Source: a virus
Taxonomy: Duplodnaviria; Caudoviricetes
Length of the DNA: 45,883 nucleotides
Reading direction: 5' to 3' (one strand)
IMG/VR virus record: IMGVR_UViG_3300010362_000005
Coordinates: 1 to 45,883 of that record
The notes beneath the pieces were generated by a model. The model was not told the DNA's origin. It worked only from the letters and a program-made list of their open reading frames with translations, and did not search any database. Shown piece after piece: positions 5,601 to 30,234 of the stretch. Both the position numbers and the translations under genes were made by a program. The stretch's first letter is position 1, and each line of letters starts with the position of its first letter.

Positions 5601-7045
5601 CAGCGCGCCCGCCAGGCGCCACAGCGGGCGAGCTGCCCGCGCTCGTCGTGCCCACGGGGAAGGTGCCGCCGGCGCCGCCGATGGAAGGCATAAGCCCCGA
5701 GGCGTGGGACCGCGCGCTGCGCACCATGCAGGCGGCCGGCAAGGAAATTCCGTGGAGCGACGCACCCGTCGCCACCGAGGCCGTGCCGCCGGCGGTGCCC
5801 GAACCGCGCGAGTACGATCCCGAGACCATCCACTACGCGAAGCAGTATTTCGCGAAGGTCGCCAAGCTCGGCGTGAACGACGGCCAGGGCGGGAAGCTCG
5901 CGACGCAAGCGCACGGCGCGCTCCGACTCTGGGAAGCGGCGCGCCAAGACCTGCGTGCGAATCCGTTGTGGGCGAAAGCCGACGACGTGTTCGCGAACCA
6001 GTCGCGGCACATCGACATGACAGAGCTGGGCCGGAACCTCACGCACGCGACGCTCGATCCCACGAGCCGGCGCGGCGCGCTCAACACGTCACTCGATGCC
6101 ATCGAGGCGCGCGTCGCCAAGGCGTCGCCGAGTGAGCGCGAAGCATTCCAGTCTGCCGGGCAAGCGTCGATCGCTGACTATTTCCGAAAAGGCGGGTCGC
6201 GCGTGGGGCTCCTCAAGCAGCTCGGCGACCCGACGTCACAGTGGAGCCGGCGCGTGGCGCTCGCGACAGGCGACCCGGAATCGCCGGCGGCGTTCCGTGC
6301 CGCGCTCCTCACACCGTCGCGCCCGATGCCGCCGGAGCTGGCGCCGCTCATCGCACCGCCGGAGGTGGCACTCGCACCAGACGCCGCGGCGCGTCAGCTC
6401 GGGTACGGGGCACTGACGGCGAAGCTCGCGCCGACGGCGAAGCAAGCGGCTGCCGGCCGTTCGCTCCCGAGCATCGAGGCGGCGCGTGCCGCGCTCCCGG
6501 CCGCCGAGGCCCGCGCCGCTCAGCAAGGCCACGCGGCGCGACTGCTCGGCGAATGGGAAGCGGCGAGCCAACGCATCAAATCGCCCGGCCGGTTCTTCGC
6601 GAAGTCGCCCGAGCGATTGCGACAGATCGCGGGCGCGTTCCCCGAGGCCGAGGACGCGACGGCATTCCAAGGGTTCGTCAGCGCCGCCGACGCCGCGCAA
6701 GCACTCAACAACTTTGTCCTCCCCACCAGCGGCTCGGCGACGCAGCCGCGGCAGGCCGTTGCATCCCTGCGCGAGGCGCTCGCGAGTGAGCATCCCATCG
6801 TTGATGAAATGCTCAAGGCGCACACCCTCACGGGCCTGCCGATCCGACTTGTGCGCGGCATCATGCAGGGGAACCGCGACGCGCGCCAACAGGTCATCGA
6901 CGATCTGATTTCGCAGTGGCTCGTCGCACCGGGTGGCGAGCAAGGACTGGAGCAGGCCGCGCGCGCACTCCAAGTGCAGCAGCGGGCGAAGTATCTCCTG
7001 CCGAACGTCACGGGCCGCGTCGGCGCCGTGCTCTCCAATCCCTAG
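2621..7045 (+). CDS. Large ejection/polyvalent protein with internal ddrB-like ParB domain
   Basis: 1474 aa, Ala/Gly-rich. The segment VEYRIVSRADVQPSHD..NPAYPEGVQGRDY..GVPTILPNGTVVAGNERAM..YVAQLKARAADYGI..PMLVRV resembles the ddrB-like ParB domain of polyvalent proteins. Confidence 0.7.
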   Translation: MKRLPTLAPQDPGQDPGEELLRRRRAQPAPSEDPNDPGAELLRRRGAGTTAPAPAEGFGGSGTSGAWGDEPPTYDYGATDQFLRGAMLHWDVKTRAAVDAALAKMKRLGSGASIGTEYEQRKAAINQARAQWESAHPVGKYGWEIAGGLAPIVATMGAAAPEVAAAEAAPETAVALTKGAKLAKAGAKVGKAMWQAAKTGAKFGAVQGAGDAEGGPLDYALSTGGGALLGAGTGAALVPLIGGGAVFGRAIGVPKVASYVASKAAEALPESRVGKALATYAASVGPKGAAAKQLAPFIETDIATGHVAPEAPSDFPTLPIDVQGPAVRSVARDIASKPTVAGARITKALTERGQRMRDVVTSRLERGTGMTRGAGESLTRGLGEDEAARVAANAAAQGDYETAVAARKLELARRAAEPEPPAPDAIAAWEGITGGPTQRNIPTLLAQRLARSQTAAENFGAARASSVPVESPALDALAETDLGKLAFRFGEEQTAQRRAAGEALGQPRPTPTPIAPAAPVAAPVSVPPTTVAPPAPALMTSNVGGIPGASGRAGRAIMRDGQALPVEYRIVSRADVQPSHDPFSFAPNPAYPEGVQGRDYLRNKGIQAAVQRRTHEFSPDIALNPSEMLSEGVPTILPNGTVVAGNERAMLLSRAAEHAPERHSAYVAQLKARAADYGIDPAAVDRVPNPMLVRVLADPAETAAGPARWAELNRLSDEVATKGKSTAEEGAARAASLMQKPEALARLADTLDPNTTVNDFLGTADGRKFVQQLVHDGVIRADELSRHIDAGGALTQEGRNAVRHMLLSTAVTRPAVLLDAPPAVLQKLEHAIPSIVSTRGTKFDITSLTTEALQMLGEARDLGMTVGDLASQHGLFGDVAPRSPMATQLAQFLETNKAGTVKAAFRKFGNVAKETIADEGNMFGPSEFQTIPDIFHASFGGTPVAEAPPAIGLAPHIPVAPPAPAPPPLAPAAPPAPAAPVAQLPTAPAPVRAPARPPGATAGELPALVVPTGKVPPAPPMEGISPEAWDRALRTMQAAGKEIPWSDAPVATEAVPPAVPEPREYDPETIHYAKQYFAKVAKLGVNDGQGGKLATQAHGALRLWEAARQDLRANPLWAKADDVFANQSRHIDMTELGRNLTHATLDPTSRRGALNTSLDAIEARVAKASPSEREAFQSAGQASIADYFRKGGSRVGLLKQLGDPTSQWSRRVALATGDPESPAAFRAALLTPSRPMPPELAPLIAPPEVALAPDAAARQLGYGALTAKLAPTAKQAAAGRSLPSIEAARAALPAAEARAAQQGHAARLLGEWEAASQRIKSPGRFFAKSPERLRQIAGAFPEAEDATAFQGFVSAADAAQALNNFVLPTSGSATQPRQAVASLREALASEHPIVDEMLKAHTLTGLPIRLVRGIMQGNRDARQQVIDDLISQWLVAPGGEQGLEQAARALQVQQRAKYLLPNVTGRVGAVLSNP

Positions 7046-13172: not shown

Positions 13173-13448
13173 ATGACAATACCGTCCCACTTCTCGTCTG
13201 GCAAGCATGCTCCCTTACCGTCGCGCAAGCAGCGGTTCGGCGCGGCATTAAGACTTGCTAGCCTCACGTATACCAAATGGGCGTCTGACCAGGGCATCAC
13301 GGTTAGCCATCTGAACCTTGTTCTAACAGGTGTTCGAGCAGGCGGCAGGCGACTTAATGCGGCGATCGACGAACTAATTCATCGCTATTTCGCGAAAACC
13401 TCTTCGACAAAACCGCCGCGCAAGCGACCCACTCGGCGGAGCGCGTAA
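13173..13448 (+). CDS. Cro-like HTH protein
   Basis: FGAALRLASLTYTKWASDQGITVSHLNLVLTG; divergent from the repressor. Confidence 0.65.
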   Translation: MTIPSHFSSGKHAPLPSRKQRFGAALRLASLTYTKWASDQGITVSHLNLVLTGVRAGGRRLNAAIDELIHRYFAKTSSTKPPRKRPTRRSA

Positions 13449-13592
13449 GGAAACTCCTGACACTCTGTAACAGTTTGGGTTCGCCGGTCACTCCTTAAAA
13501 GGCGTTGAAAGCATTGGAAGAGGTTGAAGAACGTTTTTAGGGCGCTAAAGAGCTTTAGGAAGTAGTGATTGCCTTGTCGTGAGGACACGCTC

Positions 13593-14129
13593 ATGCCATC
13601 CAGCAGTCTAAAACTCTATGAGATTGTCGAGGCTCGCGACATTCTCGACAAGTGGCTCGAAGAGTCTGAGGGCGAGCTGACGCCAGAGATTGAGGCACTG
13701 CTGGATCATCTCGACGGGAAGGCTGACGAGAAGATTGAACGCGTGGGCCTCTACATCCGGGAGCGACTCGCACAAGCCAAAGCGGTGAAGGAGGAGCGCG
13801 ACCGACTCGACGCGTTAGCGAAACGGGAAGAGCGCGCTGCCGACTCTTTGAAGAGCTACTTAAAGCGCTGCTTAGAAGCGCTTGGCAAGACCAAAGTGCA
13901 CGGACTGCTCGCGACCGTGGCCATTCAACAAAACAGTCAGCCGAGTGTCACCACCGCGCTCACCGCAACCGAGCTGTATGCGCTTGACGAGGCGCGTCCC
14001 TATGTGCGCCGTGTGGAGACCGTCCTTTACTCGCTCGATCGCGAGGCGGTGCTTGCGGCCTGGAAACGGCACGAGCCGCTACCCGAAACGATTAGTGTCG
14101 ACCTGGGCTCGCACGTGCGCATTCGCTAA
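13593..14129 (+). CDS. Siphovirus Gp157-family protein
   Basis: KLYEI...KIERVGLYIRE...KEERDRL...LKSYL...coiled coil, ending HVRIR; GAGG RBS. Confidence 0.8.
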   Translation: MPSSSLKLYEIVEARDILDKWLEESEGELTPEIEALLDHLDGKADEKIERVGLYIRERLAQAKAVKEERDRLDALAKREERAADSLKSYLKRCLEALGKTKVHGLLATVAIQQNSQPSVTTALTATELYALDEARPYVRRVETVLYSLDREAVLAAWKRHEPLPETISVDLGSHVRIR

Positions 14130-14200
14130 ATGACTTGATGGCCTGACTGAATATCACAACACGTTGGTTGCGCAACTCTTCCCTTCACCTAGACTCTCCG

Positions 14201-15337
14201 ATGACGCACGCGTTAGCGCCTACTGACGGCACGGTTGCGGCGACCGTCGCCGACCCGCGGTTGCCGGCCCCGATCAACAAGCGCACGCTGGGCAGTTACC
14301 TCACGCTGATCGAGAACCCCGACACACTCAAGCTCCAGAACCGGCTCGCCGGCGCGTACGACGCCGCGTGTGGGGCGCTCTTAGGCCCGAATGACATTCA
14401 GGTTGAGTCGGGTCGATCGTTCAAGAAGAAAAGCGCCTGGCGCAAGCTCGCGCGCTACTTCGGGATTTCGACCTCGGTCATCGACCATTCGGAGCGCTAT
14501 CTCGTCGACGAGACCACCGGCGAGTCAATCTTTGTCGCGTCGTGCACGGTGCGCGGCACGGCACCGTGGGGGCAGACGACCGACGCGACCGGCGCGTGCG
14601 GCACCGACGAAGAGAGCGGCCGGCGCAAAATCTCGATCGCCGACGCGATTGCGACGGCACAGACCCGGGCCGACAATCGCGCCGTGTCGAACCTCGTGGC
14701 GATGGGCGAAGTCTCGGCTGAAGAGGCGACGCGTGAGGAACGCTCGCAGGGCACCGCCGCAGCGGCCGCCGCCGACATGACGCTCGACGACGCGCGCAAA
14801 GTGCCGTTCCCGTGGCGCACGCCGGAGAAGTACAAGGGCAAGCCGATGGGCGACCTATCGCTGCGCATGCTCGACGCTGTGCTCGCGGCCGTGGAGAAGG
14901 AAATCGAGTCAGCCGGAATGACGCCGCGCCGGAGCGAGCTGCAACGCGCCGCGCAGCTCCTCAAGGCCGAGAAGGAAAAAGAGAAGGAAGCCGAGAAGGC
15001 GGCCAAGGCCGCGGCATCGACCGAGGCCGAGCCGGCCACAGAGCCCAAGCCGCTCGACGCGCTGCACACTGCTGTCCAGAAACTCTTATCGCACCCTGCC
15101 CTGCCGGCGCCGGCGCGCGTGTCCTATCGCGCCTGGTACGGCAACACGAATGACGAGGCGGGACTGCGCGAGCTGATTCACTCGCTCGAATCGTCGATCG
15201 AAGATGCAGCCGAAACGAATCGCGCGAAGATCGCCGACGAGGAAGCCATCGAGGACGCGAAGCTCGCACAGCGCAACGACGGCGACGACGACCGCGGGCA
15301 CTTCCGATTCGCTGGCGACGTCGACGACAATGGATAA
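14201..15337 (+). CDS. Putative single-strand annealing (Rad52/ERF-like) recombinase
   Basis: KKSAWRKLARYFG...ATAQTRADNRAVSNLVAMGEVSAEE; acidic tail; follows gp157. Confidence 0.55.
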   Translation: MTHALAPTDGTVAATVADPRLPAPINKRTLGSYLTLIENPDTLKLQNRLAGAYDAACGALLGPNDIQVESGRSFKKKSAWRKLARYFGISTSVIDHSERYLVDETTGESIFVASCTVRGTAPWGQTTDATGACGTDEESGRRKISIADAIATAQTRADNRAVSNLVAMGEVSAEEATREERSQGTAAAAAADMTLDDARKVPFPWRTPEKYKGKPMGDLSLRMLDAVLAAVEKEIESAGMTPRRSELQRAAQLLKAEKEKEKEAEKAAKAAASTEAEPATEPKPLDALHTAVQKLLSHPALPAPARVSYRAWYGNTNDEAGLRELIHSLESSIEDAAETNRAKIADEEAIEDAKLAQRNDGDDDRGHFRFAGDVDDNG

Positions 15338-15623
15338 GCCGGAGAAGCCGAAACGCGCTCCGCAGTTCTTTACCGTGCCGGCCGGGACGCCGGCCAAGCA
15401 GTGCAAGAGCGAGACGTGCGCCAAGGTGATTTACTGGATCACGACTAAGGCCGGGCGCCGCATGCCCGTCGACTGCGACGTCGAGGGCGGCGTACGGCCC
15501 ACGCCGATCTACGACCCGCGGCAGCTCGACGCGTTCAAGGCCCCGGGGCAGGTGACGCACGATGGCCGCGGTCGATCGCATTTCGAGACCTGTAAGGACG
15601 CGGCACGGTTTCGCGGCGATTGA
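15330..15623 (+). CDS. Small Zn-binding phage protein
   Basis: CKSETC..IYWITTKAGRRMPVD...SHFETC pattern. Confidence 0.65.
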   Translation: MDKPEKPKRAPQFFTVPAGTPAKQCKSETCAKVIYWITTKAGRRMPVDCDVEGGVRPTPIYDPRQLDAFKAPGQVTHDGRGRSHFETCKDAARFRGD

Positions 15624-15739
15624 CGCAAGAGCTTAGTAGAATCGAATTGTGAGGGATTGAATCCGTTGCTTGACGCGAAGTGTGCAGTGGCGTAAGGTTG
15701 GAATAGTTGCAACTCTCAACCCTTTGGAGTCCCCTTCCC

Positions 15740-16009
15740 GTGCCAAGGTCCTCAACCCTCGCTCAGCGATTCGCGAACGTGCGCCAAGAGCCGTCCCACC
15801 CGGTGCCGCTCGCCGAGCGCGGGCGCATGTACTTCCTGCGCGACGTGCAGGAGCTGCTCGGCCGTGACGAGACCGGCGCGTTTCGGAAAAGCCTCTGGTG
15901 GATCAAGAACAACTTTGCGCCGGACGCCAAGCGCAAGCTCGGTCGCGACCCGTATTGGTGGGAAGTCGACGTGCTCCGGTGGCTCGACGAGCAGCGAGGC
16001 GCCCGCTAA
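15740..16009 (+). CDS. xis: Excisionase / AlpA-like recombination directionality factor
   Basis: YFLRDVQELLG...KLGRDPYWWEVDVLRWLDEQ winged-helix pattern; TAATG-coupled to the integrase. Confidence 0.65.
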   Translation: MPRSSTLAQRFANVRQEPSHPVPLAERGRMYFLRDVQELLGRDETGAFRKSLWWIKNNFAPDAKRKLGRDPYWWEVDVLRWLDEQRGAR

Positions 16010-17208
16010 TGGCCGCCGCGCGCAAGAAAGCGATCAAGGATCGTATTGACGTCATCATCCCGGCGACGCCGCCGTGGCGCTTTCAGAAGCGCAGCGGGGC
16101 GACAACGACCGCCGAGCACACCGCGCGAAAGGGACTGCTCAAGCGACTCATTGAGGCGGGGCAACTCACCACGATCAAAGACCTCGCCGACGATCGCATC
16201 ACCTGGGAAGAACTCCGACAGGCCGAGCGCGACAAGCGCATCGGTCGCGACGACCTCGGCGCCGACATCTCGCTCGCGCGTCTGCTGTGGGACGGTGAGG
16301 GCGACGACGACCAGGGGGCTTTTGCGGTCACACTGCCGAAGATGGGCAAGCCCGGGCCCGCCGGCATCCAGACTCGCAAACGCTACGCGCTCGTGTTCGA
16401 CCAACTGCGCACGTACGGCGTCGCGGCCGGACTGTCGCCGAAGTCGCAAGTTCGCGACCTCGCGACCACGAAATGGGCCGCACTGTGGGCCGCGATGGGC
16501 GATCTGTCGCCGGCGTCGCGCAACCATGTGCGCCGGGGCGTGAGTGCCTTCCTGACGCAGTTTCTCGACAACAAGCACCACCCGTATCGACACAAGGTCT
16601 GTAAGGCGCTCGGAGCCAACGAGGACGCGACCGCGGCGGCGCGCGACATTGAGCCGCACGAGGAATGGCCGGTGCTCATGGCCGCGCTCAACGAGGCCGT
16701 ACAGCCGACGGCATTCGTGCTCGCGTTCACGGGCATGCGCATCGCTGAGTACCTCCAGCTCGACGACACGAGCGTGCGGCACGGGTTCATCACCATTCCT
16801 GGCTACAAGGACCCAGCCGCCATTCCCGAGGGGTACGAGGACCTCGTGCGGCAGGCGATCCCCTGCCGGCTCGCACCGGCGCCGGCGCGGCCCGCCGGCG
16901 TCTATCCCGGCGTGCAGTATGACGCGCGCTACAAGAAGATTTACAAGGCGTTCAAGGCCGCCGAGGTCGCGACGGGCATCAAGTGCACGCCGCACTACCT
17001 TCGACATCTGTACGCGGCGGTCGGCGTCGACGAGGCCCCGACGGTCCACGTCCAGCACGCCCTGCGGCACAAGACCCCGGCTATGACCGCCGACTACGCC
17101 AAACGGCGCAGCGCCAAACAGGTCTCCAATGCCGTCGCCGCGGTGCTCGGCCCGGCGGTCGGACTGATGCCCGCCGCGCCCAAACGGCGGCCGAAAAAGG
17201 CGGGTTGA
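16009..17208 (+). CDS. int: Tyrosine integrase
   Basis: Catalytic motifs TGMRIAE, HYLRH, LRHKTPAMTADY; adjacent to attP. Confidence 0.92.
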   Translation: MAAARKKAIKDRIDVIIPATPPWRFQKRSGATTTAEHTARKGLLKRLIEAGQLTTIKDLADDRITWEELRQAERDKRIGRDDLGADISLARLLWDGEGDDDQGAFAVTLPKMGKPGPAGIQTRKRYALVFDQLRTYGVAAGLSPKSQVRDLATTKWAALWAAMGDLSPASRNHVRRGVSAFLTQFLDNKHHPYRHKVCKALGANEDATAAARDIEPHEEWPVLMAALNEAVQPTAFVLAFTGMRIAEYLQLDDTSVRHGFITIPGYKDPAAIPEGYEDLVRQAIPCRLAPAPARPAGVYPGVQYDARYKKIYKAFKAAEVATGIKCTPHYLRHLYAAVGVDEAPTVHVQHALRHKTPAMTADYAKRRSAKQVSNAVAAVLGPAVGLMPAAPKRRPKKAG

Positions 17209-17361
17209 GCATCCTGTAATGAGTGTTTCCGGGTGAGGGAGAAAGTGAGGGACGTGTTCCCATTTCGGGCCATTTCACGCCATTCGGTAACTGCAATGTT
17301 TCTCACGTTTTCCCTCTCAAAACACGAAAGTTGTGAGTTTCGCAACTCGACCCTGGACGAC

Positions 17362-17403
17362 CTTTTAATCCGTAGGTCGCGGGTTCGAAACCCGCCCGGG
17401 TCA
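17362..17403 (+). tRNA. 3' half of tRNA-Lys(UUU) forming the attP common core; not a complete tRNA
   Basis: CTTTTAA anticodon loop, TCCGT, AGGTC, T-arm GCGGG-TTCGAAA-CCCGC, acceptor strand CCGGGTC-A; no D-arm or pairing 5' half upstream. Confidence 0.85.
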
Positions 17404-17407
17404 TACA

Positions 17408-17427
17408 CTTACGCGATTCTGCGTAAG
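17408..17427. promoter_or_regulatory. Hairpin/palindrome just after the tRNA fragment
   Basis: CTTACGC-GATTCT-GCGTAAG; no U-tract, so it may be a protein-binding site rather than a terminator. Confidence 0.4.
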
Positions 17428-17489
17428 GGGGGTGAGGGAGAAAGTGAGGGACCGGCGTCGCACTATTCCCAACTTTTGGGGATTTCTGC

Positions 17490-17702
17490 GTGACGGCGCC
17501 GGTTACTCCCCCCGCCGTCGCCCGCGCCGAGGCCCTGCTCACGAGGGTCATCGCGACCCTGGGCCCGCTCGCGCTGCGCACCAAGGTCACGCTCAAGACC
17601 TCTGAGCTGCGCCTCCTACTCGACACCATCACCGAGGCGCGGCAGGAAGTGCGCTCGCTCGTCGTGCCGCCGAACCGCGCGCACGCGGGGGGCGAACCGT
17701 GA
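17490..17702 (+). CDS. Hypothetical protein
   Basis: 70 aa; GTGA-coupled to the next ORF. Confidence 0.45.
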   Translation: MTAPVTPPAVARAEALLTRVIATLGPLALRTKVTLKTSELRLLLDTITEARQEVRSLVVPPNRAHAGGEP

Positions 17703-17917
17703 GCTGGGCCCTCACCTCGTCCCTCACCTTTCCCCTCACCCCCGGGCAGCTCGTGTCGTGGTGGTACGTCCCGCGGGGCGGCTACGGCGTGGGCTATTTC
17801 GTTGACGGCGTCATCATCGCCGTGCACCAAACACGCGTCACAATCCGGGTGAAGCGCCGCAATGGCGTCGTGGTCGATCGGCGCGTCTCGCCCGCGTCCC
17901 TTCGCCCGAGGCCCTAG
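17699..17917 (+). CDS. Small SH3/KOW-like beta protein
   Basis: PGQLVSW...GVIIAVHQTRVTIRV...RRVSPASL; ends 3 nt before the initiator gene. Confidence 0.5.
   Translation: MSWALTSSLTFPLTPGQLVSWWYVPRGGYGVGYFVDGVIIAVHQTRVTIRVKRRNGVVVDRRVSPASLRPRP
17709..17740 (-). repeat. Three inverted arm-type repeats
   Basis: Minus strand reads GTGAGGGG-AAAG-GTGAGGGA-CGAG-GTGAGGG, with the same 12-bp period as the attP arms. Confidence 0.7.
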
Positions 17918-17920
17918 CCT

Positions 17921-18799
17921 ATGGCCGAACCCTGGATTCGCGTCCACGCCAACATCGCGCATAAGCCAGTGGTGAGTCGCTGCGCCGAAGCGCTCCGTAT
18001 CACGCGCCACGAGGCCATCGGCCTGCTCGTCGAGTTTTGGGGATCGGTGTCCCAACACTCAACGAATGGTGACGTGTCAACTTTCTCCGACGGACAGCTC
18101 GAAGATTGGGCGGGCTGGCACCGACGCCGCGGGGCCTTCGCCGCATTCGTTCGCTCGTCACATATCGACCCCGACGGACGCGTGAAGGAGTGGGACGACT
18201 ACGCCGGCAAGCTGGAGCTACGCCGGGCAACGGAACGCTCCCGGCTCCGCGAAAAGCGTGAACGTGTTCGCCAGCAGTTGCAGAATGTTGGGCGACCGAC
18301 GCAAGATGTTGCGCAACAACCAACCAACAACATGCCAACCGTTGCGCAACCGTTGCCGGATGTTGGTCCCCGCGCGCGCGAACGAAACGAGACGATACGA
18401 GACGATACGGTAACTACTACCACCACCACCGCGCGCGCGGTGGCAGACGCGACCGTCGCGCTGGCCGGACGCCTTGCAACCGACATCGACCGCGAGGCGC
18501 TCGGCGCGCTGCTCGCGCTCGTCCCATCGCCCGTCACGTGGGCGGCCGATCTGTCGGCGTCGCTCGACGGCATGCCGGGCCATATCCTGGCCACACCCGC
18601 GCAGCTCGGCGAGGCGATTCGCGACTACCTCGGCAACGGCGCTGCGGAAAACCCCAACCTGCGCCAAATGCGTCGGTACATCGAGTCAGCGGTGCACCCC
18701 GTGCCACGGCCCTTCCCCAAGCTCGCCGGCGGCGCACGGAATGACACGGCAATCGACGCGGCAGTAGCGCGTCTGGAGGGTCAACATGGCAAGCATTAA
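17921..18799 (+). CDS. Replication initiator (replisome-organiser type)
   Basis: N-terminal WIRVHANIAHKP...IGLLVEFW...EWDDY, basic helix, low-complexity repeat-rich middle; paired with a loader gene. Confidence 0.7.
   Translation: MAEPWIRVHANIAHKPVVSRCAEALRITRHEAIGLLVEFWGSVSQHSTNGDVSTFSDGQLEDWAGWHRRRGAFAAFVRSSHIDPDGRVKEWDDYAGKLELRRATERSRLREKRERVRQQLQNVGRPTQDVAQQPTNNMPTVAQPLPDVGPRARERNETIRDDTVTTTTTTARAVADATVALAGRLATDIDREALGALLALVPSPVTWAADLSASLDGMPGHILATPAQLGEAIRDYLGNGAAENPNLRQMRRYIESAVHPVPRPFPKLAGGARNDTAIDAAVARLEGQHGKH
18277..18430. repeat. Candidate replication origin within the initiator gene
   Basis: Clustered GTTG/CAAC, GTTGCGCAAC palindromes at 18308 and 18341, GANAC/GANAA-like 5-mer run ~18380-18409; lambdoid origins lie inside the initiator gene. 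Confidence 0.5.
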
Positions 18800-19334
18800 G
18801 GCCGTGGGCGTGAGCCTCAAGGTTCTTGGGCGAGCGTTCGCCGGCACGGTCGACGATGCGCGCGTCTCGGTCTACGCCGCGGCGCTGGAGGACCTCACGG
18901 ACGACCAGCTCGCGGTCGCGACGGCGCGCGTCGTCAAGACGCACACCGGCGAGTTCATCCCGCCGCCGGCCGTCATTCGTCGCGCCGTCGGTGCCAATCA
19001 GCCGACCGTCGTCGACGTCGACAGTGTCGTGCGCGCGATTGGCCAGCTCGCGAAGTACAACCCTGCGTCGGGCATGATCTACCCGTCGGTGGCCGTCGTG
19101 CGCGAGGCGCTCGGCGAGGCGGTCGCCTATGCGTACGCCGCCGCCGGCGGCACGCGCATGTTCGTCGAGGACGCGATTGGCGAAGCGATTGCGCGGCGTG
19201 AGTTCCAGAAGGCTCTGGAGCAAGCCGCTACGGCGCCTGGCGCTGCGTTTCGCGTGTTGGGAGTATCACAACCCTCAACCCGGCTCGCGAGCGCGCCAGC
19301 GGGCCTTTTGGGAGCTTCTGCAGATGACACCTGA
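18786..19334 (+). CDS. Helicase loader/inhibitor-like protein
   Basis: VYAAALEDLTDDQLAVATARVVKTHTGEFIPPPAVIR (G39P/lambda P-like pattern); follows the initiator. Confidence 0.65.
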   Translation: MASIKAVGVSLKVLGRAFAGTVDDARVSVYAAALEDLTDDQLAVATARVVKTHTGEFIPPPAVIRRAVGANQPTVVDVDSVVRAIGQLAKYNPASGMIYPSVAVVREALGEAVAYAYAAAGGTRMFVEDAIGEAIARREFQKALEQAATAPGAAFRVLGVSQPSTRLASAPAGLLGASADDT

Positions 19335-21025: not shown

Positions 21026-21235
21026 TCACGGGGCGCGCTTCGTCAACTCGGTCGCGAGCACGAACGCCACGAGCCGCTCGGAGTAGTCGAGCCGCCCCCA
21101 AATCTTTCTGAGCGACGGCGGGATGTTGGCACGCCACGCCTCGGTGTCGTTCCACGGGCCGAGGGCCTTCGTGTGAAAGTCGGGATCAAGATGGCGCGCG
21201 AGGACGACGAGGTCCTCGGGTGGCGTTCTGCTCAT
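21026..21235 (-). CDS. Hypothetical protein
   Basis: 69 aa; ATGA-coupled to hicB. Confidence 0.55.
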   Translation of the reverse strand: MSRTPPEDLVVLARHLDPDFHTKALGPWNDTEAWRANIPPSLRKIWGRLDYSERLVAFVLATELTKRAP

Positions 21236-21447
21236 GGCACGCGAATGGTCTGTGTGCCGACAAACTCGCTCTCCAGCTTGGGCTCACCGTCCTCCAGCAA
21301 CATGGCGATGACTTCGCGCAGGTTGGCGTCCAGCTCTTCGCGCGTCGCGCCCTGGCCGTGCGCGCCGGCGAAGCCGGGCACGTGGCCCACGTAGAGGCCA
21401 GTCTCTGGGTCGCGCTCGACGATGGCGGTGTAAATGTGCACTGTCAA
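21232..21447 (-). CDS. hicB: Short HicB-family antitoxin, no HicA partner
   Basis: YTAIVERDPETGLYVGHVPGFAGAHGQGATREELDANLREVIAMLLE. Confidence 0.88.
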   Translation of the reverse strand: MTVHIYTAIVERDPETGLYVGHVPGFAGAHGQGATREELDANLREVIAMLLEDGEPKLESEFVGTQTIRVP

Positions 21448-21452
21448 AAGCT

Positions 21453-21483
21453 AACGGCCCCCGGGTTCAACCCGAGGGCCGTT
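21453..21483. terminator. Stem-loop, probable terminator after the lipoprotein gene
   Basis: AACGGCCC-c-CGGG-TTCAA-CCCG-a-GGGCCGTT. Confidence 0.55.
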
Positions 21484-21500
21484 GTCGTCGGTGCCACGAG

Positions 21501-21914
21501 CTAGCGGCTGTACACCTGCGCGAACCCGCCGACCACCTCGGTCAACGTGTTGCCGGTGACCGTGCCGGTGTAGTGGTCGCCGTCGCTCGTCGCGAACGAG
21601 ATGATGTTGCCGGCGACGGTCCACGTGCCCGTCTCGCTGACGGCCGAGGTCAGGTTGGGCGTGGCCGTGAAGCTGAACGTTATCACTTCTTGGTAGGTGC
21701 CCGAACGGTCGCCGGTCAGTGTGAGCACCGACGAGCGCGCGATGATCTGCGTGCCGTCAGCGAGAATGAGCGACACGGGCAGCGGCGTGCCGTTGACGGT
21801 GCGCATGGTCCACGAGCCCGAAACTGCTGGCCCGCTCGGCGCGGTGGGAGACTCGCCGCCGCACGCGGCGAGGGTCGCAAGCGCGAGGCCGGCGAAGATG
21901 CTTCGGAACTGCAT
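21501..21914 (-). CDS. Lipoprotein with lipocalin-like beta fold
   Basis: Lipobox LAAC-GG; SGSWTMRTVNGTPLP...ETGTWTVAGNIISF; AGGAG RBS. Confidence 0.8.
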   Translation of the reverse strand: MQFRSIFAGLALATLAACGGESPTAPSGPAVSGSWTMRTVNGTPLPVSLILADGTQIIARSSVLTLTGDRSGTYQEVITFSFTATPNLTSAVSETGTWTVAGNIISFATSDGDHYTGTVTGNTLTEVVGGFAQVYSR

Positions 21915-22000
21915 TGCTGCTTACTCCTAGGTGGGGTGTGTTGGTTGCTGCGTGGGGAACCCGGCGGCGCGCGCAGCTCGCCACCGCTCGGGGACGTGTC

Positions 22001-22645
22001 TTATTTCAGCTCGAAAAGAGTTGTCATCTGAACGTCCGGCCGCTTGAGCACGGAGTCGGTCACCGGGTGGAAAGAGTAGTGCCGCGACCCAGACTTGAGA
22101 TAGCGCAATGCCTGGTTCGTCGGGAAAAACAATCGCGTCAGGAAATTCCCGTTGTTGTTGTCCTCGTGTCCCAGCACCAGTTCGGTCCACTCTCTCTCTC
22201 CAGGCGCCAACTCCGTCTTGTCCTCCGTCTCGACGACGAGGTCAATGTCGTTGAGCATTGGCGCGTCGGTGAGAAAGCTCCCGAACACGCGTACGCGTGT
22301 AACTCGCGCGAGGAACTTCTTGTTGCTGTTGACTTCCTTCACGCGCTCCAGCAGTTCTGCCATTTTTTGCTCAGCCACGGCGCGCGTGAACGATGGCGCC
22401 GCTGACGCGTTGAGCAGCCGGCGACCGGCCTCGGTCAGTCCGTACCAATCGTCCTTCTTTCCAGGCGGGCAATACCTGCTGTCGGGGTCCAGCTCAATAA
22501 GTCCTTCCGCGGTGAGCGCGCCCACGTTCGTGCCGAGCGCGGCAACGTCTGCCGAGTCAAAGCCGACGTGAGCGTTCTTGCGAAACCAGTCGCGTAGCAC
22601 CTTCGCGTTCACGCCCGCGATGGTGGCTTTTGAATCAATGCGCAT
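22001..22645 (-). CDS. wHTH plus minimal nucleotidyltransferase (pol-beta family)
   Basis: VRVFGSFLTDAPMLNDIDLVVE motif; N-terminal LTAEGLIE...YGLTEAGRRL; GGAGG RBS. Confidence 0.75.
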   Translation of the reverse strand: MRIDSKATIAGVNAKVLRDWFRKNAHVGFDSADVAALGTNVGALTAEGLIELDPDSRYCPPGKKDDWYGLTEAGRRLLNASAAPSFTRAVAEQKMAELLERVKEVNSNKKFLARVTRVRVFGSFLTDAPMLNDIDLVVETEDKTELAPGEREWTELVLGHEDNNNGNFLTRLFFPTNQALRYLKSGSRHYSFHPVTDSVLKRPDVQMTTLFELK

Positions 22646-22731
22646 TAGCGCGTCCTCCTGTACTGCATTGTGCTGCTACTCCTTGAAGGGTTGGTCGCCC
22701 GGCGCAACCGCGCACGGGTCGGGTCGTGCGT

Positions 22732-22905
22732 TTATTCGGCGTGCGGGCGTTCGATCGTGCCGTCTGGCAGAATTCTGTAAAGCCACGTTTCCGGCGCGTC
22801 GTTGGTGTAGCTCACGCGCTTGACGCCAAGCTCCGTGATGTAAACCGGACAGTCGTAAGCCCTCGCGAGCTTGAGCGCGTTTTGGTATGGGGTGGCGCGG
22901 GTCAT
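22732..22905 (-). CDS. 57-aa hypothetical protein
   Basis: ATGA-coupled to the HTH gene. Confidence 0.5.
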   Translation of the reverse strand: MTRATPYQNALKLARAYDCPVYITELGVKRVSYTNDAPETWLYRILPDGTIERPHAE

Positions 22906-23135
22906 TCGGCGTGTGGGTGAAAGTGTTTTTCGATTTCGTCGGCGAGCTTCGGGTGCTTGCTCAAGAGCCAGCAGAGGCGAACGAGTGGTTGCCACGTGGG
23001 CGCGCCGGCGAGCCAGTCGCGAAACGATCGGTCGTTGACGCCGAGGACGTCGATTGCGAGCCGTACTTGCGAGCGGCCGGTGGCCTCGACGGCGTCGGCG
23101 AGAATTTGCTGCGTCTCCGTCTTGGGTTTGGGCAT
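22902..23135 (-). CDS. Small HTH regulator (Aca-like candidate)
   Basis: AVEATGRSQVRLAIDVLGVNDRSFRDWLAG...P; lies in an operon whose promoter carries two operators. Confidence 0.7.
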   Translation of the reverse strand: MPKPKTETQQILADAVEATGRSQVRLAIDVLGVNDRSFRDWLAGAPTWQPLVRLCWLLSKHPKLADEIEKHFHPHAE

Positions 23136-23142
23136 TTTTCGG

Positions 23143-23562
23143 TTACCTGGTGGGCACTCCCTCGCACGCCGTGGCGAGCACGGCCTCGATGATTGAGCCG
23201 GGCATCACCGGCACGGGGATGGGTGGGAACATCCCGGTCTCGACGGTGGACCCGGCGGGGGTGTAGGTGGCCCACACGTCCGACGCGGTAGTGCGTTTGG
23301 CACAGTCAAACTCGTTGTGCACGACGAGCGCGTCGTAGTTCTTGCCGAGGCGGTCGCTGATGGGCGTGGCGGTCTGATAGCGAACCCAGGCCGTGACCCG
23401 GCGACCATCTCGCGTCATGGTCGCGGTGTCGACGTAAACGGTCGTGGTGTTCGTGTGACCGACGAGGCTCCAGCGTGCCGACAGCGTGTTCGTCTGCGCG
23501 TGGCCGGCGGTGCCGGCGAGAATGGCGGCCGCGGCCGCGGTGAGGGTGCTACGGGACAACAT
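23143..23562 (-). CDS. Secreted surface-adhesin-E-like protein
   Basis: Signal peptide ending GHA-Q; WSLVG..VYVD..VTAWV..EFDC..Y..G..PGS..AC pattern. Confidence 0.65.
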   Translation of the reverse strand: MLSRSTLTAAAAAILAGTAGHAQTNTLSARWSLVGHTNTTTVYVDTATMTRDGRRVTAWVRYQTATPISDRLGKNYDALVVHNEFDCAKRTTASDVWATYTPAGSTVETGMFPPIPVPVMPGSIIEAVLATACEGVPTR

Positions 23563-24667: not shown

Positions 24668-24722
24668 CGGCGAGTCTCCAGGGTCTCGGGGCGCGAACCA
24701 TTCGCAACCCCTCATGAGAAGA

Positions 24723-24751
24723 ATAATAGGCGCATTAACCCTAGAGCGCAA
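24723..24751 (-). promoter_or_regulatory. Sigma70-type promoter with TAGG-N9-CCTA operator
   Basis: Minus strand TTGCGC-17 nt-TATTAT; operator at 24727-24743. Confidence 0.75.
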
Positions 24752-25574
24752 GCCGGAGCTGCAACTTTGGCTGAACTTTTTTCGGGTAGCTGTAGACGGT
24801 CGAGCCGCCGGCGAGCTGCACGCGTCGGTCCAAGGTCCACACGTATTTGTGATTGCCGGGATGTTGCAGCTTGCGCGTCAACGGCATGACGGCCCGGCGT
24901 AGCCAGTCCATGCGCGCGTCACGATCGGCGCCGGCGCCGAGCTGCTCCACGCCGAAGCGCTCGACGAGGGACGCGACGGCGCCAAGCCAGCCACGTTCAG
25001 CGCCGCGCACCTTTTGCAGCGTGCGCGCGCTCAGGTTCGTGCCGTCGGGCAGGATGTACAGCGTTCGGCGTGTGCCGAGGCCGAGGTAGCGCGCGTTCAG
25101 CGCCTGGTAGACGGTGCCGACATGGCCAGGCATCACCGTTGTGCCGGTGACGCTCGTGCGCTCGATCGGATCGCTAAAACTCACGACGCCGCGGTAGCCG
25201 CCGGCGCGGAGCTGCTCGAAGCATCGCGCGACAAAATACGACTCGGCATTGGCGCCGATTTCGTCGAGCAAGACGAGCCGGCCCAACTCGACGGCGTCGA
25301 GCGGCGCCAGCGTCGCGAACGTGTTCGTGAGCACCTTGTCATTGGCCGGGTGCGAGAACACCGCCACGCCGGCCAGCGCGCCGCGGCGGTAGAGGCCGAA
25401 GCGCTCGCGCGCCGCGGGATAGCTCGCGCTGTAGTGGTGGCGTTCGACGAACGCGCGCGGCGTTGTGTCGTCGTCCATGCGCGCCACGTCAAACTCGCTC
25501 GGCCGGATCGTCTCGCGCGCCGGCCGGTAGCTGGCGCGCCGTTCGCGCCAGCGTTGGCAATGCTCGGCGTTCAT
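24741..25574 (-). CDS. mom: Mom-family (GNAT) DNA adenine-modification protein
   Basis: FVERHHYSAS...GVAVFSHP...VELGRLVLLD..NAESYFVARC...VVSFSDP...GHVGTVYQALNARYLG...HKYVW. Confidence 0.82.
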   Translation of the reverse strand: MNAEHCQRWRERRASYRPARETIRPSEFDVARMDDDTTPRAFVERHHYSASYPAARERFGLYRRGALAGVAVFSHPANDKVLTNTFATLAPLDAVELGRLVLLDEIGANAESYFVARCFEQLRAGGYRGVVSFSDPIERTSVTGTTVMPGHVGTVYQALNARYLGLGTRRTLYILPDGTNLSARTLQKVRGAERGWLGAVASLVERFGVEQLGAGADRDARMDWLRRAVMPLTRKLQHPGNHKYVWTLDRRVQLAGGSTVYSYPKKVQPKLQLRLAL

Positions 25575-26568: not shown

Positions 26569-26633
26569 CGGGTCCTTCCCCTTCGTCGGGTGTTGGTGCG
26601 CGTCGTCGCGCGTATCGTTCGGCGATGAGCGTA

Positions 26634-26662
26634 ATACTAGGCGCTGTAACCCTAGCCCGCAA
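26634..26662 (-). promoter_or_regulatory. Sigma70-type promoter with TAGG-N9-CCTA operator upstream of ardA
   Basis: Minus strand TTGCGG-17 nt-TAGTAT; operator at 26638-26654. Confidence 0.75.
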
Positions 26663-26790
26663 GTAGGCAAGTTGAACTTTTTTCAACTCGGCCGTCGGCG
26701 CCACCGCTCGGGTACAGTCGAGCCCGGTAGGTAGCGAGTTGCACGGTTGTGCAATTGACAACTTGACAAATTGGCGCCATCCTGCGCCGC

Positions 26791-27114
26791 ATGTTCCCGC
26801 AGTGTCTCGACGACGACCGTTGTCCGGCCTGTGAGGCGCCCGAGGCGCACGGCGTCTGCGCGTGGCACTTAGCGGGCATTCTCCCGCAGCTCGCGCGGCC
26901 CTGGTGGGTCTGGCTGATCGGCGTGTCGATCGTGTCACAGCGCCAGGCGCCGCGCGCCAGTGATGCGCCGCTCTCCGTCTCGCCCGAGGCGCTTGCGCAT
27001 GCTGAGCGCCGGCGCCGCTCGCGTCGGCCGCGCAAGTCGCGCGCAGTGGTTCGTGCTCGCCGGCGTGGCGTCAAAGGGCTCGCACGGGCCCTAATGCAAA
27101 CGGCGCCCGTATGA
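26791..27114 (+). CDS. Possible leaderless Cys/Arg-rich protein
   Basis: TTGACA (26755)-17 nt-CATCCT, ATG 7 nt later, no RBS; CPAC...CAWH motif. Confidence 0.35.
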   Translation: MFPQCLDDDRCPACEAPEAHGVCAWHLAGILPQLARPWWVWLIGVSIVSQRQAPRASDAPLSVSPEALAHAERRRRSRRPRKSRAVVRARRRGVKGLARALMQTAPV

Positions 27115-27125
27115 GGGGCGCCGTT
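27099..27125. terminator. Stem-loop between convergent units
   Basis: AACGGCGCCC-N7-GGGCGCCGTT. Confidence 0.6.
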
Positions 27126-27143
27126 GTGGTCTCTCGTGCGTTG

Positions 27144-27431
27144 TCAAAATGGGAGGTCGTCCGCTTCGAGCGCGCCAGCATCGTTCACGAACGTCCACGG
27201 CGGCAACGTCGGCCCCCAATTCTCGGCGACGCGTTCGGCATCGTTGTCGACGATGCGCCATTGCAGCTCGTTGTAATACTCGGGCAGACGCGACATCAGG
27301 ACGTCGAGCCAGGCGCGCGTTTCGGCCGTCGCTTCGACGTGCCAGGGTGTCCAGCCGATGATTTCGTCACGGCCCCCAAAGCGAGGGCCGCGGGCGAGCG
27401 CGACGAAACGCGGCGACGAGTTGCGCAGCAT
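27144..27431 (-). CDS. Small protein with SSB-like acidic tail (DDLPF)
   Basis: 95 aa; GGAGG RBS; C-terminus ADDLPF. Confidence 0.6.
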   Translation of the reverse strand: MLRNSSPRFVALARGPRFGGRDEIIGWTPWHVEATAETRAWLDVLMSRLPEYYNELQWRIVDNDAERVAENWGPTLPPWTFVNDAGALEADDLPF

Positions 27432-27434
27432 GGG

Positions 27435-27596
27435 TTAGCCCTCCGCGGCGGCGAAGTTGACTCGGCCCTCGTCTTTCGCGAGGCAGTCGGTTCCCCAGAG
27501 GTCGAGCGCGACCGCAGCGCATGCCAGGTCATACCAAATCTCGGACTCGGGATTCTTGCGGGCGATCACGGTCAGCGTGCGGGCCAGGTCATGCAT
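27435..27596 (-). CDS. 53-aa protein, first gene of the island (below ORF-track cutoff)
   Basis: GGAG RBS; MHDLARTLTVIARKNPESEIWYDLACAAVALDLWGTDCLAKDEGRVNFAAAEG. Confidence 0.55.
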   Translation of the reverse strand: MHDLARTLTVIARKNPESEIWYDLACAAVALDLWGTDCLAKDEGRVNFAAAEG

Positions 27597-27636
27597 AGCA
27601 GCTCCAACAAAGGGTTAGCGTTTCCTGTTGAGTATC

Positions 27637-27664
27637 AAGATAGGCGCAATAACCCTAGTGTCAA
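27637..27664 (-). promoter_or_regulatory. Sigma70-type promoter with TAGG-N9-CCTA operator, divergent from terS
   Basis: Minus strand TTGACA-16 nt-TATCTT; operator at 27641-27657. Confidence 0.7.
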
Positions 27665-27682
27665 GGGGCAAAAATAAACCAG

Positions 27683-28150
27683 ATGCCGCGCCTTTCTCGC
27701 AACGCCGTCCTGTCCGTGCGCCGCCAACGGTTCGTCGCTGAGTTCATGGTCGACGGCAACGCCACGCAAGCCGCTATCCGTGCAGGCTTTGCACGCGGTC
27801 GAGCTGCTACCGTCGAAGGCGCCCGCCTGCTAGCCAATGCTGACGTGCAAGCCGCGCTAGCCATCGCGAAAGCGGCGCGCGCGCGTCGCCTCGACCTCTC
27901 GGCAGACTGGGTGCTTATGCAACTTGTCTCATTGCATGCGGCGACCGTCGAGCGCGAGCCGGAGACGGCGCGCAGGTGCCTGCGCGACATCGGCGACGGC
28001 CTCGGGATGTTCGTCGAGCGGCACGAGCACGAGTTCCCGCAGCTCAGCGCCGACGAGCGCAACGCACGCGTCGCTGCACTGCTGAGCGCCGGCCGCATGC
28101 GAGCGCTTGCCGCCGGTGCGATCCCGGCCGATGCCGGCCAGAACGAATAA
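27683..28150 (+). CDS. terS: Terminase small subunit
   Basis: RQRFVAEFMVDGNATQAAIRAGF...GARLLANADVQ (Terminase_2 pattern). Confidence 0.9.
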   Translation: MPRLSRNAVLSVRRQRFVAEFMVDGNATQAAIRAGFARGRAATVEGARLLANADVQAALAIAKAARARRLDLSADWVLMQLVSLHAATVEREPETARRCLRDIGDGLGMFVERHEHEFPQLSADERNARVAALLSAGRMRALAAGAIPADAGQNE

Positions 28151-28238
28151 CTAATCCGTAGCCAACCTAGGCTAAGTGGCTATATGACAATGGATTACAA
28201 GACCTTGCGCCTGAGTGGTGAGGGAAATGGTGAGGGAC
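28137..28238 (+). other. Secondary att-like site (core half-sites plus arm pair)
   Basis: TAATCCGTAG at 28152 and GGTGAGGGA-AATG-GTGAGGGAC at 28217; the 65-bp offset equals that in attP. Confidence 0.7.
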
Positions 28239-28432
28239 ACGAGACGGACGACGACGAGCGCGACGACGACGAGCAAGACGAGGAAACCGACGACGTCGAC
28301 GACGAGCCCGAACCCGAGCCGGCGCCGGGCCCCACCCCCACCCCCTACCCCCAAATGACGACGGCGGGGCGTTGGAGTCCCGTGCCCTTCCCGCCTTCCG
28401 CGCATGGGTTACGGAAAGTCGGTCTCGCGTGA
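28184..28432 (+). CDS. Small acidic/Pro-rich protein
   Basis: 82 aa with a D/E tract; stop overlaps terL ATG 28432; overlaps the att-like arm. Confidence 0.4.
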   Translation: MTMDYKTLRLSGEGNGEGHETDDDERDDDEQDEETDDVDDEPEPEPAPGPTPTPYPQMTTAGRWSPVPFPPSAHGLRKVGLA

Positions 28433-30234
28433 TGATTTCTGAATTCGTTCACTCGCATTCACAAATGCTCGCGGTGGAGTTTCTGAGTGCGGAGGAGCGC
28501 ACGGAACTCGACCAGCATTTGGTAGCGCTGACGAGTGGGCGGCCGCATGTGGAGTTTCAGCGGGACCCGGTCGCGTGGGCGCACGTGATGTTGGGAGTGC
28601 CGGCCTACACGATCGTGTGGTCCCTCAATGCGGGATATGGACGCCATGCGTGGGATGGCGACGCCGATCCCTTGGCGCGGTTGTTCGAGGCGGTGCGTGA
28701 CGGGAAGAATTGCGGTGTGGAGTCGGGCACGGGCACGGGCAAGTCGTTTGCGATGGCCGTGCTCATTCTCTGGTTTCTCGCGTGTTACGAAGATTCCAGA
28801 GTGTTCACGTTCGCGCCGAAGGAGGACCAGCTCCGGCTCTTCATCTGGGCCGAGATTCGGAAACTCTGGCCACGCTTTCACGCGCACTTCCCCGACGCCG
28901 AGCTGCTCGATTTGGAAATTCGCATGCGCGGGAACGGCGACAAGACGTGGATTGCGCAGGGCGTGGCGGTCGGGATCGAAGTCGGCGAGGCCGTCAGCAC
29001 GAAGGCCTCGGGCATGCACGCGCAGCACATGATGCTCGTGTATGAGGAAGCGCAGCGGGTGCCGCTTCAAGTGATGGAAGCCGGCGAGAACGCGTGCACG
29101 GCGGCGCACAACTTCCGGGTCGCGATTGGCAACTGCAACAATCGGCTGGACACGTTGCATCGGTTTGCCACCGCGGCGGGGACGGTCCACGTGCGCATGT
29201 CGGCGTTGGATCATCCGAACGTCGTCACGGGCAACGCCGAGCTGATTCCCGGCGCCGTGTCGGGAGAGTCGATCCGGCGCCGGCGCGAGAAGTATGGCGA
29301 GACGAGCCCCGTGTATCAGTCGCGGGTGCGAGGGATTAGCCCCGAACAGGCGAGCGATGCGCTCATTCGGCACGAGTGGCTCGAAGCATCAGCGGTCAGG
29401 TACGAGGCAGGACTGAGGCGCGGCGCGATTTACACGGTGCCGGGGAAGCTCACGGGGAAAGGCGTCGACGTCGCCAACAGTGAGCACGGCGACCGTGCGT
29501 GTATCGTCGATTTCTCGGAGCAGCGCGTCGTGCGTGTGGAGGCGTTCCAGTGTCCTGACGCCAACGCGCTCGGGCGGCAGGTGGTCATGGAGCTGCAAGC
29601 CGCCGAACTCAAGGCTGAGTATTGCGGCATTGACACCATTGGCGTGGGCGCGGGCACGGTGAACGAATGCCGGCGGTTGCGCCAACGCGTGCAAGCGCTC
29701 AACGCATCGTCGCGTCCATTCAAGAATTCTCAGAAGTCGCCAGACGGCGCCACGTATGAGTGGGCCGACGATGCGAACCAGTTCCGGCATTTCCGCGATC
29801 AAGGGTACTGGCAGCTCCGCGAGGACTTTCGACTCGGGCGCATCGACATGGCGCGCGATGACGAGCTGTGGGAAGAGCTGACGGCGCACACGTTCGTCGA
29901 CGAGCCCAAGACGGTGATTGAGCCGAAGGACGAGGTGCGCGCACGCCTCGGGCGTTCGCCGGACAAGGCTGAGGCGTTGATGCTCGGCAATTGGGCGCGG
30001 CGCCGGCGCGCGTGGGTGCCCGAGGTGCACGACGAGTCGACGGGGCTGAGTGAAGGGCACGATCACCGGGTGCGCTTTCGTCGGATGGCGCACGCGCTGG
30101 GTGGCGAGTGGGTGGGGCCCGGTGAGCGGGTCGGAGAGTTGATCGAGGGGAGCGCCGGGGATGGGGACCGCGAGGCAGCGGGCCTCGGCGCTGTCACCGG
30201 CGGCTACACCGACCAACTGCCAGTCGGGATTTAG
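28432..30234 (+). CDS. terL: Terminase large subunit
   Basis: Walker A ESGTGTGKS, Walker B-like LVYEEA, coupling IGN, nuclease GVDVA...IDTIGVGAG...RSPDKAEAL; start approximate. Confidence 0.92.
   Translation: MISEFVHSHSQMLAVEFLSAEERTELDQHLVALTSGRPHVEFQRDPVAWAHVMLGVPAYTIVWSLNAGYGRHAWDGDADPLARLFEAVRDGKNCGVESGTGTGKSFAMAVLILWFLACYEDSRVFTFAPKEDQLRLFIWAEIRKLWPRFHAHFPDAELLDLEIRMRGNGDKTWIAQGVAVGIEVGEAVSTKASGMHAQHMMLVYEEAQRVPLQVMEAGENACTAAHNFRVAIGNCNNRLDTLHRFATAAGTVHVRMSALDHPNVVTGNAELIPGAVSGESIRRRREKYGETSPVYQSRVRGISPEQASDALIRHEWLEASAVRYEAGLRRGAIYTVPGKLTGKGVDVANSEHGDRACIVDFSEQRVVRVEAFQCPDANALGRQVVMELQAAELKAEYCGIDTIGVGAGTVNECRRLRQRVQALNASSRPFKNSQKSPDGATYEWADDANQFRHFRDQGYWQLREDFRLGRIDMARDDELWEELTAHTFVDEPKTVIEPKDEVRARLGRSPDKAEALMLGNWARRRRAWVPEVHDESTGLSEGHDHRVRFRRMAHALGGEWVGPGERVGELIEGSAGDGDREAAGLGAVTGGYTDQLPVGI

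Follow-up and report, generated by a model that had tools for sequence, protein, structure and literature searches.

Organization of the locus

The window, that is, the whole stretch of 45,883 nucleotides analysed here, is a complete circular phage record with a 121-nt end repeat and a unit of 45,762 bp. The 59 ORFs scanned include genes for both terminase subunits (terS and terL), portal, capsid, tail-fibre, replication initiator, ArdA and Mom proteins and a single integrase, which is of the tyrosine type (Int). The best relative of Int in named genomes belongs to a Gemmatimonadaceae MAG and the terL profile matches four of 401 genomes of Gemmatimonadaceae, which together point to a Gemmatimonadota bacterium as the likely host. 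Int and attP lie inside the early operon (13173–19334), with an excisionase (xis) candidate on one side and the initiator on the other, so that integration would part the replication genes from the early promoter. A second site resembling attP (site 2) is located between terS and terL. The relevant features are as follows.

15649–15666, plus strand: single arm repeat followed by a half-core, AATCCGT, upstream of xis-int
15827–16009, plus strand: 60-aa gene directly before int, likely excisionase (xis candidate), with a 54% identical homolog before int in locus L007
16009–17208, plus strand: tyrosine integrase (PF00589)
17232–17253, plus strand: attP left arm pair, with no counterpart at site 2
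17357–17404, plus strand: attP core ACGAC-CTTTTAA-TCCGT and 3′ half of tRNA-Lys(UUU)
17402–17452, plus strand: attP right side, with CA-N5-TTAC box (+33) and arm pair (+62)
17709–17740, minus strand: inverted triple of arm repeats at the start of a 72-aa ORF before the replication initiator, with no counterpart at site 2
27683–28150, plus strand: terminase small subunit terS (PF03592), presumed to contain pac
28143–28147, plus strand: site 2 left core half-site ACGAA, within the last terS codons (ACGGA on the host tRNA-Lys side and in L128)
28148–28154, plus strand: site 2 7-bp overlap TAACTAA, starting with the terS stop codon (CTTTTAA in attP, TTAGCAA in L128)
28155–28161, plus strand: site 2 right core half-site TCCGT(AG), the same in attP and L128
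28184–28432, plus strand: 82-aa acidic, proline-rich ORF over the box and arms, its stop overlapping the terL start
28188–28198, plus strand: site 2 CA-N5-TTAC box, at +33
28217–28238, plus strand: site 2 arm-type repeat pair, 12 bp apart, at +62
28330–28380, no strand assigned: C-rich repeats followed by GGCGGG..TTGGAGTC
28432–30234, plus strand: terminase large subunit terL (phrog_2)

Integrase, attP and arm-type repeats

The catalytic residues of Int are intact: R245, H330, R333 and Y364 are invariant and H355 is nearly invariant in alignment A1. The structure model has a pLDDT of 84 and lambda Int gives the best fold matches, with an E value of only about 1e-3; the modelled N-terminal strands and helix suggest an arm-binding domain. 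The 60-aa xis candidate has no Pfam match.

The repeat GTGAGGGA occurs eight times in the window against a chance mean of 0.84, a count reached in none of 100 shuffles; TAATCCGTAG alone, with two matches, is not significant (two were reached in seven of 100 shuffles). Arm pairs spaced by 12 bp flank att in many Int-family loci and vary with the Int, and among the 25 Int-family loci listed (two of these being duplicates and one the window itself), GTCCCACAGT, TCCCTCAC and AGTCCCGC are examples of pairs found repeatedly next to tRNA junctions. Locus L007 has a 36%-identical Int, after which come the CTTTTAA anticodon loop found also in attP, the tRNA half and then host DNA, with a different 12-bp-spaced pair. 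On this basis the overlap is equated with the 7-bp anticodon loop of tRNA-Lys (17362–17368 in attP, corresponding to 28148–28154 in site 2). A C-terminal V[RW]xxVR, which is a reading of the arm pair, is found at the protein level in 15 of 20 Int homologs and, together with the spaced pairs beside the tRNA junctions, makes it very likely that the repeats are arm-type sites.

Three features had been overlooked in the initial annotation: the inverted triple at 17709–17740, the arm and half-core at 15649–15666 and the acidic ORF at 28184–28432. In a co-occurring relative, the triple carries one change among those listed, at a degenerate position. The arm and half-core may be a site of Int autoregulation. 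They stand (15649–15699) just upstream of a weak TTGACG-17-TAAGGT pair before xis-int, which falls below the scan threshold; in genome G001, no comparable arm was found upstream of int.

Anatomy of site 2

Positions 17351–17452 and 28137–28238 align without gaps at an offset of 10,786 bp and share 55 of 102 positions, as the initial annotation had reported. Its finer counts also read as the alignment does: seven of ten positions in the left core flank, ten of 15 in an intermediate block and an arm pair 65 bp from TAATCCGTAG in both attP and site 2. It had correctly counted five mismatches next to the core, but only four of these lie inside the 7-bp overlap (the anticodon loop). The best other ungapped placement of the attP 102-mer on either strand of the window gives 46 identities, and a chance origin was rejected on this difference and on the excess of GTGAGGGA. 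A pure coding repeat, with Gly-Glu-Gly encoded twice, was discarded because it leaves the non-coding core unexplained; a tRNA or other RNA gene was likewise rejected (ARAGORN 0, Rfam 0 at E<=1, folding z-scores of −0.3 to +1.1).

Site 2 comprises two inverted core half-sites around a 7-bp overlap (ACGAA in the window or ACGGA in L128, 7 bp, TCCGT), followed by the box and the arms, with 28 bp replacing the tRNA stem at unchanged length. The CA-N5-TTAC box, which we take to resemble an IHF site, is present at +33 in five sites and is a candidate site for a bending protein between core and arms. The arm repeats are at +62 in attP, site 2 and L128. The same layout is seen at the host junctions of two host-integrated Int-family elements at tRNA-Lys (L136 and L150), with ACGGA-CTTTTAA-TCCGT, the box again at +33 and an arm end displaced by no more than 1 bp, and was absent from the four other Lys junctions compared. 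A pattern built from these same sites, and thus partly circular, matched two of 396 genomes (L136 and L150); the reversed control matched none. The left half-site of site 2 is closer to the ACGGA of the host tRNA side than to the ACGAC of attP. This correspondence with the L136 and L150 junctions indicates that site 2 is an attL mimic with a host-type left half-site, in agreement with the earlier description of it as attL-like; neither a left arm pair nor a distal inverted triple is present there. The overlap differs from that of attP at four of seven positions in both phages, so site 2 is not a conventional attL of this prophage.

Site 2 occupies the first intergenic place after terS, 232 bp from the terS centre. 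The 82-aa ORF that begins within it has no usable Atlas or Pfam match; its 5′ part is in frame in L128 (51% identical) and its 3′ part is frameshifted. The block at 28330–28380 is kept as DNA in L128 (430–495) across this frameshift, in another reading frame, and is possibly a packaging-related cis element or the terminase cut region.

Conservation and distribution

A metagenome scan gave three loci: L129 (the window's own record), L128 (terL 92%, with 69% DNA identity over the terS–site region, and hence the closest relative) and L130 (terL 67%). The comparison with L128, which covers the terS–site–terL region and not its int, is the single instance in which conservation and spacing in a close relative, called for by the initial annotation, could be examined: all elements of site 2 are present at the same spacing, and the core ACGGA-TTAGCAA-TCCGT forms a perfect palindrome (ACGGATT-AGC-AATCCGT). 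Positions of site 2 that equal attP are kept in L128 in 49 of 55 cases and the others in 24 of 47 (Fisher p=2e-5, the test treating positions as independent within a single phage pair). The non-coding part behaves likewise (13 of 14 and 8 of 19, respectively; p=0.003). The two overlaps differ from each other at three of seven positions and each differs from attP at four of seven, the first base always being changed and the terminal AA spared. In L128 the terS stop and the core are displaced by one base against each other, which means that the core sequence is not dictated by the protein. The TerS protein P0144 ends in Thr-Asn-stop, which is compatible, at the protein level, with the left core. 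These counts, from one pair of phages, indicate that site 2 is under selection, as the initial annotation had proposed.

The same comparison bears on whether site 2 could be a relic, either the attL scar of a helper-embedded satellite or an old attP duplication, partly kept by the acidic ORF. The arms encode Gly-Glu-Gly twice and the ORF is in frame there in both phages, the arm motif is common to related Ints, the insert is lineage-specific, and satellites are described as integrating into prophage late genes, terminase included (PMC10111431, in part). However, conservation follows likeness to attP in the non-coding part as well, a Gly-to-Arg change leaves the GTGAGGGA repeat intact, the L128 site is nearer to the window's attP (60 of 102) than is the window's own site (55 of 102), and neither a matching attR nor a second integrase was found. 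We consider a relic unlikely.

At 16 of 19 other terL loci, a terS-sized ORF (presumed terS) abuts or overlaps terL with no such site between them, so the gap and its insert are specific to this lineage; of the remaining three, upstream DNA is missing at one, other genes intervene at another and the third is L128 (L021, L027 and L155 were left out of the survey as partial and L169 was read separately). Three relaxed core-plus-arm patterns found no further carrier of site 2 among the viral contigs, and none of 391 family genomes gave a match. When the arm pair alone was sought, it turned up at 100 loci; a weak terL match accompanied it at one of these and an Int match at none. Among the 25 of 274 INPHARED matches listed, none was to Int and those to terL stayed below 30%. 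In G002 and G070, which carry another integrase at tRNA-Leu, arm pairs occur only at att; G003 has a distant Int without an att pair, and G585 and G685 have no family Int. The relatives and genomes scanned have no established copy of this Int and are not fair tests of the absence of site 2. Site 2 was found in two phages, both belonging to one assembly set. Runs X2 and X3 contain a relative, whose kinship to the phage of L128 is not established, in which the attP region persists with an altered left flank. In L130 (6900–7010), repeated TCCGTA[AG]/CTACGGA motifs resembling the Int core precede an HTH gene upstream of terS and are probably operators of that gene.

Contig evidence on recombination

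Recombination was assessed in assembled contigs, which drop rare forms, principally from run X1, a possible source of the window. A contig from X1 (26955–28842) spans site 2 unbroken and without differences at a depth of 43.9, and the binned depth shows no step across 17.4–28.1 kb. No attP/site-2 hybrid appears among the 27 of 176 joints and 18 of 34 loose ends listed. Neither the split junctions, among the rows listed, nor the coverage step over 17.37–28.15 kb that the initial annotation had suggested looking for is therefore seen in these data, and abundant splitting of the genome in this sample is unlikely. One listed joint, from 27213 to 17336, was taken as a short chance match and is absent from the second listing. 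The depth of 43.9 over terS–terL compares with 30.5–38.3 in five contigs to the left, one other left contig having 43.8; the difference is too weak to place pac.

These observations weaken the two options in the initial annotation that involve recombination of site 2 with attP or attR despite the mismatches, namely resolution into circles of 10,786 and 34,976 bp, or excision without the replication–terS module, which would leave pac on the chromosome. The direct orientation gives an excision-type geometry, with site 2 as attL and the P arm of attP as attR, and the terminal AA is common to all three overlaps. IntDOT of CTnDOT, which like this Int uses a 7-bp overlap, needs only one or two identical bases, on one side, by the first cut (PMC2817482, in part). 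For IntDOT, however, mismatched sites are the normal reaction, whereas the normal target of this Int keeps a fully identical overlap: the family junctions preserve the 7-bp loop, though tRNA function would require that anyway. The first overlap base of site 2 is mismatched in both phages, the contig, depth and joints listed show no trace of such exchange, and neither product would be able to complete a lytic cycle alone. Recombination of this kind is accordingly the least probable of the readings considered; it and a relic fit the data less well than the two readings set out below.

Proposed function of site 2

The sequence comparisons indicate that site 2 is a second site of the phage's own integrase, attL-shaped, selected and with a private overlap. 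Half-sites, box and arms are kept while the overlap drifts away from that of attP, so the site behaves as though it were its own partner. We therefore favour, with a probability of about 0.4, a reading that the initial annotation had overlooked and that suits the drifting overlap best: site 2 would be a self-by-self site comparable to loxP of phage P1, placed after the presumed pac, at which Int circularizes terminally redundant DNA. A self-by-self reaction makes no new junction, which fits the unbroken contig.

In P22, pac lies in the centre of terS and packaging is directed towards its 3′ end (PMC8575938, in part), and a headful amounts to 102–110% of the genome (PMC9006064, in part). If packaging here likewise starts from a pac in terS and runs rightwards, a copy of site 2 would be present at each end of the DNA in first-headful particles, the terS–terL gap being the nearest non-coding place downstream of a terS-centred pac. 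After injection, Int expressed from the early operon could, together with a host factor that bends DNA, build an attL-type complex on each copy. Lambda-type exchange requires identical overlaps (PMC4880445 and PMC1807965, both in part). The identical overlaps of the two copies would let strand exchange finish and yield a unit circle, and dimers, in which copies of site 2 also meet, would be resolved in the same way. An overlap unlike CTTTTAA would block completed recombination with attP, attL, attR and the host tRNA gene, leaving the overlap free to drift between phages. Such a single enzyme would serve two orthogonal site pairs, with tRNA-Lys integration/excision and Cre-like self-circularization separated only by the 7-bp overlap, an extension that we put forward tentatively. 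The ArdA–Mom block adjoins terS on the left, from where it would be early to reach the cell if the end packaged last is the first to leave.

Several points count against circularization at site 2. In lambda, Int-bound cores alone do not give stable synapsis, with which Xis helps (PMC4880445, in part), and the gain would be confined to first headfuls. The conserved block at 28330–28380 could be the cut region, and if the packaging cut fell to the right of site 2, each particle would receive a single copy. A Gp157/Gam-like gene is present and a neighbouring 378-aa early protein (14201–15337) gives weak leads to annealing proteins (Sak/Rad52, scores of 0.85–0.86), so the phage may circularize by homologous recombination; relatives, moreover, manage without site 2. 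No Pfam match was obtained for the 378-aa protein, and those nearest to it in the Atlas are phage proteins without a name.

The sequence pattern expected under circularization, in which core, box and arms are conserved and the overlap is heterologous, is equally predicted by a complex that does not recombine. In this reading, a looped assembly of Int and a host factor would prevent read-through beyond terS, into terL and the structural operon, or the loading of terminase, or would serve as an attR decoy; the block would last until excision and replication titrate Int, and the foreign overlap would prevent recombination. Further Int-type motifs stand before xis-int (15649–15666) and before the initiator (17709–17740), and if packaging preceded excision, it would begin about 10.5 kb from attL and the replication module would be lost. 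A tRNA-targeting tyrosine integrase, KplE1 IntS, can repress transcription through att sequences, but there a core mutation left repression unchanged (PMC2951348, in part), so repression by itself need not conserve a spaced core. The KplE1 site is also a true attL over the int promoter, whereas site 2 is 11 kb from int and its core is kept. A simpler place for a transcription gate would be before terS, and no terminator-like site was found between terS and terL. We regard such a gate or decoy as doubtful, though less so than a relic; it and circularization at site 2 are not mutually exclusive.

Comparison with known systems

Site 2 differs from a conventional attL, from a Cre-lox site and from a helper-embedded satellite, and most likely works like loxP. 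In P1, a tyrosine recombinase joins two identical sites from one head after infection, and lox sites with identical spacers recombine whereas those with unlike spacers hardly do so (PMC2841073, in part). Cre serves a plasmid prophage as a dedicated, arm-less recombinase, whereas the candidate here is the chromosomal integrase of the phage, acting at a site with box and arms; the 59 ORFs scanned hold no dedicated recombinase of the loxP type. The natural position of loxP is near pac. Lambda attL (B-O-P′) shares with site 2 the core half-sites, the 7-bp overlap and the arm sites, and has a bending-protein site where site 2 has its candidate box (PMC4880445 and PMC1807965, both in part). Recombination of attL with attL is represented in lambda by the bent-L pathway of the laboratory; to our knowledge, lambda has no second internal attL with a different overlap. 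Helper-embedded satellites (HE-PICI) also have integrase sites in prophage late genes, including terminase (PMC10111431, in part), and bring their own integrase, an attL–attR pair and cargo genes, whereas here a single site, bearing the arm motif of the phage itself, separates terS and terL, both of which are intact. In the full-text literature searched, with few subscription papers covered, no description was found of a phage's own integrase site between terS and terL, or of such an integrase circularizing the injected DNA.

As far as we know, the prevailing assumption is that a phage carries one site for its integrase, and a second selected site with a private overlap implies that the integrase has another job. 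Circularization at site 2, if true, would give attL × attL recombination a natural role, unite the strategies of P1 and lambda in one enzyme and provide an integrase with built-in orthogonal sites. A gate would tie packaging to excision and bear on how prophages limit lateral transduction. If one enzyme does carry out both reactions, Int would, through the extra Int-type sites before xis-int and the initiator, coordinate the whole cycle. Sites of this kind leave no junction in assemblies and would escape att finders that seek identical cores.

Other features of the window

The int/att layout of the window recurs in L001 (828–2220) with an unrelated integrase at tRNA-Leu, the G070 prophage being listed alongside. 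A 39-nt repeat is present in three copies (24714–24752, 26625–26663 and 27628–27666), which lie where the DUF6011 and ArdA genes begin and ahead of the ORF at 27431. On the minus strand, the repeat has the form of a sigma-70-like promoter, with a spacer common to the copies; these three promoter-like copies belong to the ArdA–Mom block, point left and likely mark one regulon of early anti-defence genes. An accessory block on the minus strand (21026–23562) holds HicB-like, lipocalin-like, nucleotidyltransferase-like and adhesin-E-like genes. A 1474-aa protein with a ddrB-like ParB domain is encoded at 2621–7045, at the position of a podovirus ejection protein.
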